Shown in pieces: positions 35,380 to 43,132 of a DNA stretch of 64,000 nt (position 1 is its first letter; each line of letters begins with the position of its first letter). The notes beneath the pieces are model-generated. The model made no database searches, had not been told where the DNA came from, and worked only from the letters and a program-made list of their open reading frames with translations. The position numbers and the translations under genes are program-made. The DNA lies in the NCBI RefSeq assembly GCF_988242995.1, contig NZ_OZ547043.1. The stretch is one strand, 5' to 3'.

Positions 35380-35844
35380 CTAACGCAAATGATGCACCAC
35401 CTGATTGCTGCTGCCGCGCCAGATCAGGGAAGGGTCTTTTAAATCCTGCACAAATTTGCCGTCGACCAGTACGTTAATCAAATCAACAACCTGCATTTGC
35501 GCAGCGTTGAGTTCGTCGAGTTTATAGCCTGTCCACACCCAGATGTCTTTACCCGGACATTCGGCGCGGATGCGTTGTACCAGTTTCAGAATATCCGGCA
35601 CGTTTTGCGGATGCAGCGGATCGCCGCCGGAGAGGGAAATCCCCTGGCGTTTGATGCGAGTGTCATTCAGATCGTTAATGATCTGGTCTTCCATTGCTTT
35701 GGTAAATGGCTGACCGGAATTTACCCGCCAGGTGCTTTTGTTATAGCAACCGGGGCATTCATGAACACACCCGGAGACAAACAGGGTGCAGCGAGTGCCG
35801 GGGCCGTTGACGATGTCGACAGGATAGTACTGATGAAAGTTCAT
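35380..35844 (-). CDS. nrdG: Anaerobic ribonucleoside-triphosphate reductase activating protein (radical SAM)
   Basis: 154-aa ORF MNFHQYYPVDIVNGPGTRCTLFVSGCVHECPGCYN... with a CxxxCxxC-type cluster motif. Confidence 0.95.
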   Translation of the reverse strand: MNFHQYYPVDIVNGPGTRCTLFVSGCVHECPGCYNKSTWRVNSGQPFTKAMEDQIINDLNDTRIKRQGISLSGGDPLHPQNVPDILKLVQRIRAECPGKDIWVWTGYKLDELNAAQMQVVDLINVLVDGKFVQDLKDPSLIWRGSSNQVVHHLR

Positions 35845-36029: not shown

Positions 36030-38168
36030 TTAACCGATCTGCCCATTTCCCAAATGTTTAACGCGGCGCTTAACTTCTTCCTGCTTACCAGCGTTAAACG
36101 GACGTGCATCCGGGCTACCTAAATATCCGCACACGCGGCGAGTCACCGACACACGGGAGGCGTCATGGTTACCACATTTCGGGCAAGTGAAGCCTTTGCT
36201 GGTGCACTCGAACTCGCCAGTAAAGCCACACTCGTAGCACTCATCGATCGGCGTATTGGTGCCGTAATACGGTACATGCTGATAGCTGTAATCCCAGACA
36301 TCTTCCAGCGCCTTCAGGTTGTGCTGAATGTTTGGATACTCGCCGTAGCAAATGAAACCACCGTTCGCCAGCGGCGGGTAAGGCGCTTCAAAGTCGATCT
36401 TGTCATACGGGTTCACCTTTTTCTCCACATCAAGGTGGAAACTGTTGGTGTAGTAACCTTTATCGGTCACGCCCGGCACCACGCCAAACTCAGCGGTATC
36501 GAGACGGCAGAAGCGGTCGCACAGGTTTTCACTTGGCGTGCTGTAGAGACTGAAACCGTAACCCGTTTCTTCTTTCCACTGATCCACCGCCTGACGCAGA
36601 CGTTCAACAATCGCGATACCTTTCGCGCGGAGCTGCTCGTTGTCGTAAACATGCTCGCCGCCGAACAGCGCGTTAATGGTTTCGTGGATGCCGATGTAAC
36701 CCAGCGAAATAGACGCACGACCGTTTTTGAAGATTTCAGAAACGTCGTCGTCAGCATTCAGACGCACGCCACAAGCGCCTTCCATATAGAGGATCGGGGC
36801 TACGCGCGCTTTCACGCCCTCGAGACGAGCGATACGGGTCATCAGCGCCTTACGTGCCAGCACCAGACGTTCATCCAGCAGCTTCCAGAAGGTGGCTTCA
36901 TCGCCTTTTGCCTCCAGAGCAATACGCGGCAGGTTCAGGCTGATCACGCCGAGGTTGTTACGACCATCGTGGATCTGCTCGCCGTTTTCATTTTCCCACA
37001 CGCCGAGGAAGCTGCGGCAGCCCATCGGGGTTTTAAACGAACCGGTGACTTTCACTACCTGATCGTAGTTCAGGATATCCGGATACATGCGCTTGCTTGC
37101 GCACTCCAGCGCCAGCTGTTTGATGTCGTAGTTCGGATCACCTTTTTTATGGTTCAGGCCATCGCGAATCGCAAACACCAGTTTCGGGAACACCGCAGTT
37201 TTACGGTTTTTACCGAGGCCGGCGATACGGTTACGCAGGATCGATTCCTGAATCAGGCGCGACTCCCAGCTGGTGCCCAGACCAAAACCAAAGGTTACAA
37301 ACGGCGTTTGACCGTTGGCGGTATGCAGGGTGTTTACTTCGTACTCCAGCGACTGGAAGGCATCGTAGCACTCTTTGATGGTACGAGAGTTAGCGTAGCC
37401 TTCGGCGTCCGGGATGTTCCACTCTTCTGCGGTCTTGCGATGTTTGTTGTAGCTGGCGGTGACAAACGGTGCCAGCACTTCATCGATACGGTTAATGGTG
37501 GTGCCGCCATAAATATGGCTGGCGACCTGAGCAATAATCTGCGCAGTTACAGCGGTTGCCGTAGAAATCGACTTCGGCGGTTCAATCTCGGCGTTCCCCA
37601 TTTTAAAGCCCTGGGTCAGCATGCCTTTCAGGTCGATCAACATGCAGTTGAACATCGGGAAGAACGGCGAGTAATCGAGATCGTGATAGTGAATATCACC
37701 ACGTTCATGTGCCTGCACCACGTCACGCGGCAGCAGGTGCTGGCGTGCATAGTGTTTAGCCACGATCCCGGCCAGCAGGTCGCGCTGGGTTGGAATCACC
37801 TTGCTGTCTTTGTTGGCGTTTTCGTTGAGTAACGAGGAGTTGGTCTGCTCGACCAGACCACGGATCTCCTGGTTCAGGCGACCGCGTTTTTCACGTTCAA
37901 TGTCGCGATCGTGACGGTACTCGATGTAAGCACGAGCCAGTTGTTTGTATGGACCCGACATCAGCTGGTTTTCAACTGCGGTCTGGATCTCATTGATATC
38001 CACCTGGTTGCGGCCCTGCATCTGCTCGCTGACAACCGCGGCAACAGTGGCGCAATAATCGGCATCATCGACTTCCGCTGCTTTAGCTGCACGCAGAATC
38101 GCTTCTTTGATGCGCTCTGATTTAAACGGCACTTTGCAGCCGTCTCGTTTCATCACATGCGGTGTCAT
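36030..38168 (-). CDS. nrdD: Anaerobic ribonucleoside-triphosphate reductase (class III)
   Basis: 712-aa ORF with ATP-cone N-terminus and C-terminal glycyl-radical motif; Zn-binding cysteines near the C-terminus. Confidence 0.96.
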   Translation of the reverse strand: MTPHVMKRDGCKVPFKSERIKEAILRAAKAAEVDDADYCATVAAVVSEQMQGRNQVDINEIQTAVENQLMSGPYKQLARAYIEYRHDRDIEREKRGRLNQEIRGLVEQTNSSLLNENANKDSKVIPTQRDLLAGIVAKHYARQHLLPRDVVQAHERGDIHYHDLDYSPFFPMFNCMLIDLKGMLTQGFKMGNAEIEPPKSISTATAVTAQIIAQVASHIYGGTTINRIDEVLAPFVTASYNKHRKTAEEWNIPDAEGYANSRTIKECYDAFQSLEYEVNTLHTANGQTPFVTFGFGLGTSWESRLIQESILRNRIAGLGKNRKTAVFPKLVFAIRDGLNHKKGDPNYDIKQLALECASKRMYPDILNYDQVVKVTGSFKTPMGCRSFLGVWENENGEQIHDGRNNLGVISLNLPRIALEAKGDEATFWKLLDERLVLARKALMTRIARLEGVKARVAPILYMEGACGVRLNADDDVSEIFKNGRASISLGYIGIHETINALFGGEHVYDNEQLRAKGIAIVERLRQAVDQWKEETGYGFSLYSTPSENLCDRFCRLDTAEFGVVPGVTDKGYYTNSFHLDVEKKVNPYDKIDFEAPYPPLANGGFICYGEYPNIQHNLKALEDVWDYSYQHVPYYGTNTPIDECYECGFTGEFECTSKGFTCPKCGNHDASRVSVTRRVCGYLGSPDARPFNAGKQEEVKRRVKHLGNGQIG

Positions 38169-38403
38169 GATCGCTCCATATTTTTAAGAACAGGTTATCC
38201 ACAGAAATTGGGAAAGGCGTTTTCCGGTTTTTTTGTTTCGTTTTCCGGTGCTTTCCGCAATCGCCATCCGCTTATCCACAACGCCGCACCTTTTTCGTGG
38301 GGAGCTGTAGTAGCAATTATAGTCGATTAATACAACATATTGGGTTGGGACGCATTTTAAAGTCTATATATAGTGCTTTGCATCAAGGATGTTTGAACTT
38401 TTT

Positions 38404-38417
38404 TTGATGTAGCTCAA
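38404..38417. promoter_or_regulatory. Candidate FNR box upstream of nrdDG
   Basis: TTGATgtagCTCAA, a 9/10 match to the FNR consensus TTGAT-N4-ATCAA, about 240 bp upstream of the nrdD start. Confidence 0.4.
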
Positions 38418-38561
38418 AGTAAAAAGCAGAGCGTACGGATGACGGGCGCTACAGCGATATGTAAATTTTTTAATGAATTTTTTGATTATAAAATCAACAA
38501 AAACAACATACTGACAGGCAAAACCCCGGAATGACAGGCATTACCGGGGCTTAGCGAAGAT

Positions 38562-40217
38562 TTACTTCTGTAACCACCAGACAGCCTCAAAAGGCCGTAA
38601 AGTCATGGCACAGGGTTGTGGTGAGGCTTCTTCGTAGTTATGCATCACAAGCTGCCAGTTGCCGAGCATTTTCCCTGGCTGCCAGGGTTGGGTCTCACGG
38701 CTAAGGTTGGCAATGACCAGCAAGGTTTGCTCCTTCCACTCACGGCGATAGCACCACAATACAGGGCTGTTTGGCAGCAGATCCTGGTAATCGCCCCATG
38801 TCAGGACGGCTTCTTGCTTACGCAGTGCGATTAACTTTTGGTAGGTGTAAAACACCGAGGACTCATCGGTCAGCGCGGCTTCTACGTTGATTTCCTGATA
38901 GTTATCGCCCAGACCAATCCACGGTTCGCCAGCCGTAAACCCGGCATTATCGCCGTTGGTCCATTGCATGGGTGTGCGACTGTTGTCACGGGATTTACTG
39001 GCGAGGATTGCCAATAACTCGTCGGCATCACGCCCATCGTTGCGCAGCTCGGCAAACATATTGAGGCTCTCCACGTCGCGATAGTCAGTAATGCGCGTGA
39101 AATGCGGGTTGGTCATGCCAATCTCTTCGCCCTGGTAGATATACGGCGTTCCCTGCATGCCATGCAGCACCATCGCCAGCATTTTTGCCGCAGGCACGCG
39201 GTATTCACCTTCATCACCAAAGCGAGAAACAATGCGCGGCTGATCGTGGTTACACCAGAACAAGGCATTCCATGCCACGTTGTGCATTCCTTGTTGCCAG
39301 TGGCGGAACAATGTTTTCAACGCCACAAAGTCAGGTTTAGCCAGCGTCCATTTTTCACCACCGGGATAATCGACTTTCAGGTGATGAAAATTAAAGGTCA
39401 TCGACAATTCACTGCCTGTCAGTGCCGCATATCGCTGGCAATGCTCAAGGCTGGTGGAGGACATTTCACCTACGGTCATTAACCCGCGTGGCGTAAACAC
39501 ATCGCGGTTCATCTCGTGCAAAAACTCGTGTGCTCGTGGCCCGTCGGTGTAGAAGCGACGCCCGTCGCCATCCAGGTCATCAGGGAAACGCGGGTCTTTG
39601 GAGATCAGATTCACCACATCCAGGCGCAACCCGTCGACCCCACGATCGGCCCAGAACTCACAGACTTTTTTCAGCTCTGCGCGTACCGCTGGATTCTCCC
39701 AGTTGAGATCCGCCTGTTCTGGTGCAAAGAGATGCAAATAGTACTGTTCGCTTTCCGCATGCCAGCGCCACGCACTACCGCCAAATTTTGAACGCCAGTT
39801 GTTCGGTGGCGTTTCTGGTTCTCCATCGCGCCAGATATAAAACTGGCGGTAAGGGGTTGCTTTGTTCAGCGCCTCGCGAAACCAGGCATGTTGGGTAGAG
39901 GTATGGTTAAACACCATATCGAGAATGATACGAATCCCGCGCGATTTTGCCTGTGTCACCAGTTCGTCAAAATCGTCCAGCGTGCCGTAGGTGGGATCAA
40001 TAGCCGTATAGTTCGCTACGTCGTAACCGTTATCAACCTGGGGAGAGACATAAAAGGGGGTTAGCCAGATGGCATCAACGCCCAGTTTATGCAGATAGTC
40101 CAGGCGCTGGATAACGCCACGTAAATCGCCGGTGCCGCTACCCGTGGTGTCCTGAAAACTCTTTGGATAAATCTGGTAGATAACGCCGTTTTGCCACCAG
40201 TGGGGAAGATGAGTCAT
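38562..40217 (-). CDS. treC: Trehalose-6-phosphate hydrolase (GH13)
   Basis: 551-aa product MTHLPHWWQNGVIYQIYPKSFQD...; internal start chosen within track ORF 38562-40364. Confidence 0.95.
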   Translation of the reverse strand: MTHLPHWWQNGVIYQIYPKSFQDTTGSGTGDLRGVIQRLDYLHKLGVDAIWLTPFYVSPQVDNGYDVANYTAIDPTYGTLDDFDELVTQAKSRGIRIILDMVFNHTSTQHAWFREALNKATPYRQFYIWRDGEPETPPNNWRSKFGGSAWRWHAESEQYYLHLFAPEQADLNWENPAVRAELKKVCEFWADRGVDGLRLDVVNLISKDPRFPDDLDGDGRRFYTDGPRAHEFLHEMNRDVFTPRGLMTVGEMSSTSLEHCQRYAALTGSELSMTFNFHHLKVDYPGGEKWTLAKPDFVALKTLFRHWQQGMHNVAWNALFWCNHDQPRIVSRFGDEGEYRVPAAKMLAMVLHGMQGTPYIYQGEEIGMTNPHFTRITDYRDVESLNMFAELRNDGRDADELLAILASKSRDNSRTPMQWTNGDNAGFTAGEPWIGLGDNYQEINVEAALTDESSVFYTYQKLIALRKQEAVLTWGDYQDLLPNSPVLWCYRREWKEQTLLVIANLSRETQPWQPGKMLGNWQLVMHNYEEASPQPCAMTLRPFEAVWWLQK

Positions 40218-42754: not shown

Positions 42755-42827
42755 CCTGTTGTCCCGTAACGTGTTGTTTAATTATTTGAGCCTAACTTTA
42801 CCCGTGCATTCAGCAATGGGTAAAGTC

Positions 42828-42845
42828 TGGTTTATCGTTGGTTTA
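42828..42845 (+). promoter_or_regulatory. PhoP box of the mgtA promoter
   Basis: Direct repeat GGTTTA-tcgtt-GGTTTA matching the PhoP consensus, about 290 bp upstream of the mgtA start codon. Confidence 0.8.
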
Positions 42846-42869
42846 GTTGCCTGCAGGTATTATATCGCC

Positions 42870-43132
42870 ATAGATGCTACGAATATTATTGGATTCTCCT
42901 TATTATTTGCGGCGCTTTTTTCACTTACCGGAGGTTATATGGAACCTGATCCCACGCCTCTCCCTCGACGGAGATTAAAACTTTTCCGGTAAGCCCGTCT
43001 TTTCACGGCGTTACCGGATGCGTAAGGCCGTGACGTTTTAACGTCCCTGCTCAGCTTTATTACCTTCAGGTAAGGCTTCGCCACGCCTGAAGACATTTCT
43101 GTACTGTTTCAGACAGTGTGGAGGGACTCCTT
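42870..43132 (+). promoter_or_regulatory. mgtA leader (Mg2+/proline-responsive attenuator region)
   Basis: Long untranslated leader between the PhoP-dependent promoter and mgtA, containing the proline-rich leader ORF mgtL. Confidence 0.7.
42939..42992 (+). CDS. mgtL: mgtA leader peptide
   Basis: 17-codon [20 protein letters not shown] with a GGAGG ribosome-binding site inside the mgtA leader. Confidence 0.85.

Follow-up and report, generated by a model that had tools for sequence, protein, structure and literature searches.

The treC-nrdD locus and its counterpart in E. coli K-12

Within the window, by which we mean the whole stretch of 64,000 nucleotides that was analysed and which is E. 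coli DNA, the region studied here separates treC from nrdD. The genes and features that define it are as follows:

35380..35844, minus strand: nrdG (open reading frame), the activating enzyme, 154 aa, in the same operon as nrdD
36030..38168, minus strand: nrdD (open reading frame and RefSeq annotation), class III anaerobic ribonucleoside-triphosphate reductase, 712 aa, K-12 b4238
38170-38560: the treC-nrdD intergenic region, all of it (393 bp); the nrdD sense strand is the minus strand
38518..38555, minus strand: probable treC (treBC) terminator, a hairpin followed by a U-run, directly 3' of the treC stop codon
38562, minus strand: end of treC (stop codon 38562-38564)

The gene order treC / nrdD / nrdG is that of K-12 MG1655, and nrdG equals K-12 b4237 in size and arrangement. 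A segment of 521 bases around the FNR site described below was matched in 5425 of 5426 complete E. coli genomes, with 100% identity in several of them, and these genome matches carry the annotation of a treC end and an nrdD start. Compared with E. coli K-12, the intergenic region represents the same locus and is 99% identical; both FNR sites, both NrdR boxes, the -10 hexamer and the leader DnaA boxes, all presented in the following sections, are base-for-base equal to those of K-12. The single-nucleotide differences between the two strains map to position 38397 (C-to-T, between the FNR sites), to positions 38481-38489, 38518, 38536 and 38555 further upstream, and to position 38234 in the leader, so that none of them falls within a known operator. 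The five clustered differences at 38481-38489 (TTGATTTTTCAACCAGC to TTGATTTTATAATCAAA) give this strain a perfect TTGAT-N6-ATCAA palindrome, which occupies 38482-38497 on the minus strand, ~140 bp upstream of the nrdDG start; its 6-bp spacer is wrong for FNR, and it scores low with the position weight matrix (PWM) described below.

The hairpin at 38518..38555 folds at -20.4 kcal/mol (z = -3.95), none of 200 shuffles being equally stable upon RNA folding, and is probably the treC terminator, which would insulate the nrdDG promoter. A simple terminator scan missed it because of the loop-size limit of the scanner. When positions 38000-38700 were searched against Rfam 15 at a permissive threshold, no match reached the gathering score, the sole match being a sub-threshold STnc410 (16.2 bits vs 50 required; E = 0.58).

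FNR-2: sequence, score and occupancy

The main feature of the intergenic region is the following:

38404..38417, minus strand: FNR-2 site; the plus strand reads TTGATGTAGCTCAA and the nrdD sense strand reads TTGAGctacATCAA

On the plus strand, nine of the ten positions match the consensus TTGAT-N4-ATCAA, the mismatch consisting of CTCAA against ATCAA; on the sense strand, the site can be read as TTGAG-ctac-ATCAA, with the FNR core TTGA...TCAA and a 4-bp spacer. With at most one mismatch allowed, the 64-kb window contains 6 consensus matches and shuffled sequences 2.93 +/- 1.59; a count of 6 was attained by 6 of 100 shuffles and is not significant alone. We therefore replaced the consensus count by a PWM derived from 62 ChIP-positive FNR sites (Myers 2013, Table S6), symmetrised and with FNR-2 itself left out. 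Using this matrix, FNR-2 scored 17.85 bits and ranked first among 63,987 window positions, the runner-up reaching 12.96 bits. Its exact probability of 4.5e-7 per position translates into 0.029 expected occurrences per 64 kb; for the 393 bp of the intergenic region, the figure is 1.7e-4. The 9/10 consensus match at 38404-38417 claimed in an earlier note on this DNA is exact as described, and the FNR weight-matrix scan which that note had proposed, a poor score being regarded as damaging to the claim, placed the site as the best of the window.

An FNR-like palindrome lacking any regulatory role could have arisen by chance in an AT-rich intergenic region, a reading that finds some footing in the frequency of near-consensus matches in the window (6 vs 2.9 expected) and in the many high-scoring 'silent' sites devoid of a ChIP peak in Myers 2013. 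We consider it extremely improbable, given that the PWM score stands far above the rest of the window, with the low probability calculated above for the intergenic region, and that the site is located under published ChIP-seq and ChIP-chip peaks. Indeed, the nrdD entry of Table S6 in Myers 2013 is exactly TTGATGTAGCTCAA (position 4460919, PatSer 15.68, ln p -14.45); this site lies under a ChIP-seq peak whose summit, 4460925, is the centre of the 14-mer, and no masking by Fis, H-NS or IHF was recorded there. Independently, nrdD was found among the FNR targets by ChIP-chip (Grainger 2007; PMC1802558).

Binding has also been established on isolated DNA. A 54-bp nrdDG promoter oligonucleotide, TACTTTGAGCTACATCAAAAAAAGCTCAAACATCCTTGATGCAAAGCACTATAT, binds two [4Fe-4S]-FNR dimers in anoxic SEC-SAXS (2023 JBC, PMC10425943), and we found this 54-mer to be identical to window positions 38422..38369 (minus strand) except for T in place of C at 38397, outside both FNR sites. 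According to Roca et al. 2008, as relayed in PMC10425943, the centre of site 1 lies at -33.5 and that of site 2, which corresponds to FNR-2, at -64.5; the same account credits them with EMSA binding, with an FNR affinity greater for site 2 than for site 1, and with a mutagenesis in which site 2 proved necessary and sufficient for nrdDG expression and anaerobic activation. These data also bear on the suggestion that CRP, or another protein of the CRP/FNR family, is the main ligand of the palindrome in place of FNR, a suggestion that draws on the relatedness of the CRP and FNR inverted repeats and on the existence of promoters that respond to both proteins. The half-sites TTGAG and TTGAT (on opposite strands) and the N4 spacer do not conform to the CRP form TGTGA-N6-TCACA, and it is FNR whose binding to nrdDG DNA has been observed by SEC-SAXS (PMC10425943), by EMSA (Roca et al. 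2008, again as relayed there) and in vivo by ChIP, which leaves CRP, or another member of the family, a negligible chance of being the main ligand.

Overall, we identify 38404-38417 as the published FNR-2 operator of the E. coli nrdDG promoter, with a probability of about 0.96. FNR-2 is the switch that allows E. coli to synthesise DNA precursors without oxygen. It has been known since 2003-2008 and was then confirmed repeatedly by ChIP and structural work, so that finding it again only validates the earlier motif recognition, the small added value residing in the comparative data presented below.

Elsewhere in the window, the treR-mgtA intergenic interval (about 42755-43117) is credited in Myers 2013 with a weak ChIP-seq peak of FNR (ln p -7.47); it supplies none of the top 15 PWM matches in the window.

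FNR-1, NrdR boxes and promoter geometry

Downstream of FNR-2, the following features could be placed:

38373..38386, minus strand: FNR-1 site, weaker and auxiliary, TTGATgcaaAGCAC on the sense strand, 8/10; centred at -33.5 and overlapping the -35 region
38361..38376 (-30 to -15), minus strand: NrdR box 1, GCACTATATATAGACT, with a 4-nt overlap with FNR-1
38354..38359 (-13 to -8), minus strand: -10 hexamer TAAAAT, placed from the transcription start implied by the published site centres
38346, minus strand: nrdDG transcription start (+1, A), inferred arithmetically from the published -33.5 and -64.5 centres (secondary citation)
38330..38345 (+2 to +17), minus strand: NrdR box 2, ACCCAATATGTTGTAT, a block conserved among species

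FNR-1, which reads GTGCTTTGCATCAA at 38373-38386, scored 10.73 bits with the PWM, ranking eighth in the window and second in the intergenic region, where no position other than those of FNR-2 and FNR-1 exceeded 1.5 bits. The centres of the two sites, 38379.5 for FNR-1 and 38410.5 for FNR-2, are 31 bp apart. With FNR-2 centred at -64.5 from the literature-implied start, the conserved TAAAAT hexamer is found where a -10 element is expected, and the motif TTAAAAT around -10 is nearly invariant across 89 species. The promoter is devoid of a usable -35 hexamer, this region being occupied by FNR-1. On the minus strand, a simple sigma-70 scanner detected no promoter; such a result is to be expected when a promoter depends on an activator, and it gives no positive support to the placement. 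Alternative starts putting either FNR site at -41.5 (38338 or 38369) were rejected, as no plausible -10 hexamer lies upstream of them. On the plus strand, a sigma-70-like match, TTGGGA-18-TATAGT (9/12), occurs at 38345-38374, antisense to nrdD and over the NrdR boxes; it is probably a chance match, the count of such matches being equal to the shuffle expectation.

The limits of the NrdR boxes were set by the rule of a 16-bp box and a 15-bp linker (PMC12176259), which places the box starts 31 bp apart. In that work, NrdR-ATP-dATP bound a 57-bp nrdDG probe with a KD of about 150-160 nM, and the probe has exactly the sequence of window positions 38381..38325. The region thus displays the two boxes of an NrdR-repressed ribonucleotide reductase promoter, both overlapping the core promoter, and an overlap of the same kind between an NrdR box and an FNR site has been described in Salmonella (PMC2892513).

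The earlier note had recognised FNR-2 and overlooked FNR-1 as well as the two NrdR boxes. Its proposal that the site fits anaerobic activation of the class III ribonucleotide reductase is supported by the experimental characterisation of FNR-2 in the E. coli nrdDG promoter, and its reservation that the site might lie too far from the transcription start probably does not hold, a centre at -64.5 from the literature-implied start being a likely, though non-canonical, activating distance. To its statement that the exact promoter geometry is not confirmable from sequence alone, it can be added that a geometry is published, which puts the start at 38346.

As to how unusual this arrangement is, 19 of the 23 directly activated FNR promoters of Myers 2013 have their site at -41.5 +/- 4, which makes both -64.5 and -33.5 non-canonical, the former being canonical neither for class I nor for class II. 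Canonical class II FNR promoters (narG, nirB, dmsA) have in common with nrdDG the operator type TTGAT-N4-ATCAA and the sensing of oxygen through [4Fe-4S] FNR dimerisation, but they carry one site, at -41.5, whereas nrdDG carries two, at -64.5 and -33.5. Two FNR dimers, with a hierarchy between the sites, are also found at tandem-site FNR promoters such as yfiD (two FNR sites) and ndh. We read the upstream FNR site of yfiD as inhibitory. In contrast, the upstream site of nrdDG is the essential activator and the downstream one is auxiliary. In a metabolic engineering study, deletion of the upstream FNR site of yfiD was listed among the ways to strengthen that promoter, and the nrdDG promoter ranked among the weakest oxygen-dependent promoters tested. 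The authors of the 2023 JBC paper referred to the activation mechanism at nrdDG as 'a remaining mystery' (PMC10425943).

Expression of nrdDG and the contribution of FNR

In the wild type, nrdD and nrdG were 2.8-fold and 3.7-fold higher, respectively, under anaerobic conditions (Myers 2013, Table S12). This table compares the wild type grown aerobically and anaerobically, the direction of the ratio being inferred from the cyo/sdh and nar/hya rows; an interpretation of the table as an fnr-mutant comparison was rejected. In the same study, the nrdD peak was assigned to Category 3: FNR occupies the site, but expression in glucose minimal medium underwent no FNR-dependent change, and earlier data had pointed to activation with nitrate or nitrite. 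The Category 3 status, together with the weakness of the promoter, indicates that occupancy does not always amount to strong activation.

The FNR-bound site might be mainly a conditional or architectural element in vivo, the output being set by NrdR, DnaA, H-NS or nitrate/nitrite factors and FNR alone activating little. Consistent with such a role are the Category 3 assignment with activation by nitrate or nitrite, the non-canonical positions of the sites in a weak promoter, the overlap of the NrdR boxes with the core promoter, and the binding of DnaA in the leader. It is opposed by the mutagenesis of Roca et al. 2008 (via PMC10425943), from which FNR-2 emerged as necessary and sufficient for nrdDG expression, by the anaerobic induction seen in the wild type, and by the strict conservation of both FNR sites, which fits direct activation. 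We judge a mainly conditional role unlikely; it is the only rival explanation with some weight, and it refines the accepted model of FNR-2 as the activating operator without replacing it.

Conservation of the FNR tandem in Enterobacteriaceae

A degenerate pattern describing the NrdD N-terminus was run against a single genome of each species and retrieved 97 loci, which represent about 20 genera of Enterobacteriaceae. The spacing was counted in the 90 loci having at least 327 nt of upstream sequence, and the PWM was applied over 420 nt upstream of nrdD. In 89 of these 90 species, the two best PWM matches were exactly 31 bp apart and at a constant distance from nrdD, the third-best score having a median of 1.1 bits. 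The lone exception, a Siccibacter genome (L056), has a degenerate FNR-1 and has kept FNR-2, as would fit FNR-2 being the essential site. That the site and its 31-bp partner spacing have been retained among variable flanking bases further argues against a chance palindrome.

FNR-2 was represented by 22 sequence variants, in which TTG and TCAA were invariant across the 89 species and the inner positions were variable, the footprint expected of FNR contacts. The balance between the two sites differed among genera: Escherichia combines a near-consensus FNR-2 (17.8-18.4 bits) with a weak FNR-1 (6.4-10.7 bits; TTGATgcaaAGCAC or TTAATgcaaAGCAC), while most other genera harbor an FNR-1 that is better than in Escherichia (TTGATgcaaATCAC; 15.5 bits), along with an FNR-2 that reads TTGTTctgaATCAA or similar, with TTGTT or TTGCG replacing TTGAG in its left half. 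In a published comparison of ten genomes, nrdDG of Enterobacteriaceae and Vibrionaceae was already placed under Fnr control (PMC1805755).

DnaA boxes and a candidate hairpin in the nrdDG leader

The literature-implied start defines a 5' leader:

38169..38346, minus strand: nrdDG 5' leader, 178 nt, with the ATG at 38168 and a Shine-Dalgarno GGAG at 38174-38177

Among the 89 species, 86 have a leader of 167-190 nt; that of the other three measures 73 nt. Only two perfect DnaA boxes (TTATCCACA) exist in the 64-kb window, at 38195-38203 and 38272-38280 (plus strand). The two belong to the nrdD leader, where they point the same way at an offset of 77 bp, and the Shine-Dalgarno sequence follows closely after the proximal one. 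The pair was kept in 82 of the 89 species, where the boxes precede the ATG by about 35 and 112 nt and enclose a variable sequence; they are as conserved as the FNR sites. A weaker DnaA box can be seen at 38184-38192 (plus strand). A ChIP-seq study of 2024 reported that DnaA binds upstream of nrdD, with the proximal double box tTTAAGAACAggTTATCCACAg (PMC11317965), which we located at window positions 38184-38203; the distal perfect box is absent from the table of that paper. In addition, the NrdD protein has been found to rise in DARS2 mutants (PMC12371093).

The segment between the two DnaA boxes contains an inverted repeat whose arms are TTGcGGAAAG (38260..38251) and CTTTCCCAA (38216..38208) on the minus strand; other genera have retained the pairing with different bases. 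In a model-guided alignment of 80 sequences, 74% of the cells of the specified stem pair vs 64% in shuffles, and the covariation score was 0.357 vs 0.202 in shuffles, none of 500 shuffles reaching 0.357; this stem was specified manually, and the shuffle control is known to be permissive for related sequences. Double changes were present at all 8 of 8 pairs, and register 0 was the best in a slide control. RNAalifold, applied to the whole leader and to the segment between the DnaA boxes, gave essentially no consensus structure, and single-sequence folds of the inter-box segment exceeded shuffles in stability by a small margin only (median z -1.1). From the alignment, the hairpin is suggestive only: it may be an RNA structure, or may simply reflect shared ancestry.

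A model for the control of nrdDG

The model outlined here combines results that we computed (sequence identity, motif score, placement and conservation of the tandem) with others taken from the literature (FNR binding, the hierarchy of the sites, the start and NrdR binding). Without oxygen, [4Fe-4S]-FNR dimers would occupy FNR-2 at -64.5 and the weaker FNR-1 at -33.5; since the centres are separated by 31 bp, or about three helical turns, both dimers would sit on the same face of the DNA. From there, they would activate sigma-70 RNA polymerase at a promoter having the TAAAAT -10 hexamer and lacking a usable -35, giving rise to a transcript from about 38346 that would comprise the 178-nt leader followed by nrdD and nrdG. 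FNR-2 would be essential, and FNR-1 would raise the output only when FNR-2 is occupied. NrdR loaded with ATP/dATP would act as repressor through its boxes at -30..-15 and +2..+17.

A broader and more speculative reading, which we hold to be possible and still rather doubtful, combines two elements: (i) the 31-bp tandem would embody a geometry unlike class I or class II, in which the proximal dimer replaces the -35 element and the distal dimer is required, and (ii) a leader module would add a second layer of control. Were this the case, the leader module, with its DnaA boxes flanking the hairpin, could make anaerobic dNTP synthesis responsive to the state of the replication initiator, for example through a DnaA roadblock or looping, or through RNA structure.

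The three species with a 73-nt leader, Pseudescherichia vulneris (L009), Escherichia sp. ESNIH1 (L010) and Enterobacteriaceae UBA7338 (L034), have kept the FNR tandem and the NrdR boxes and have lost both perfect DnaA boxes together with the hairpin region; they provide a natural deletion series for the function of the leader.
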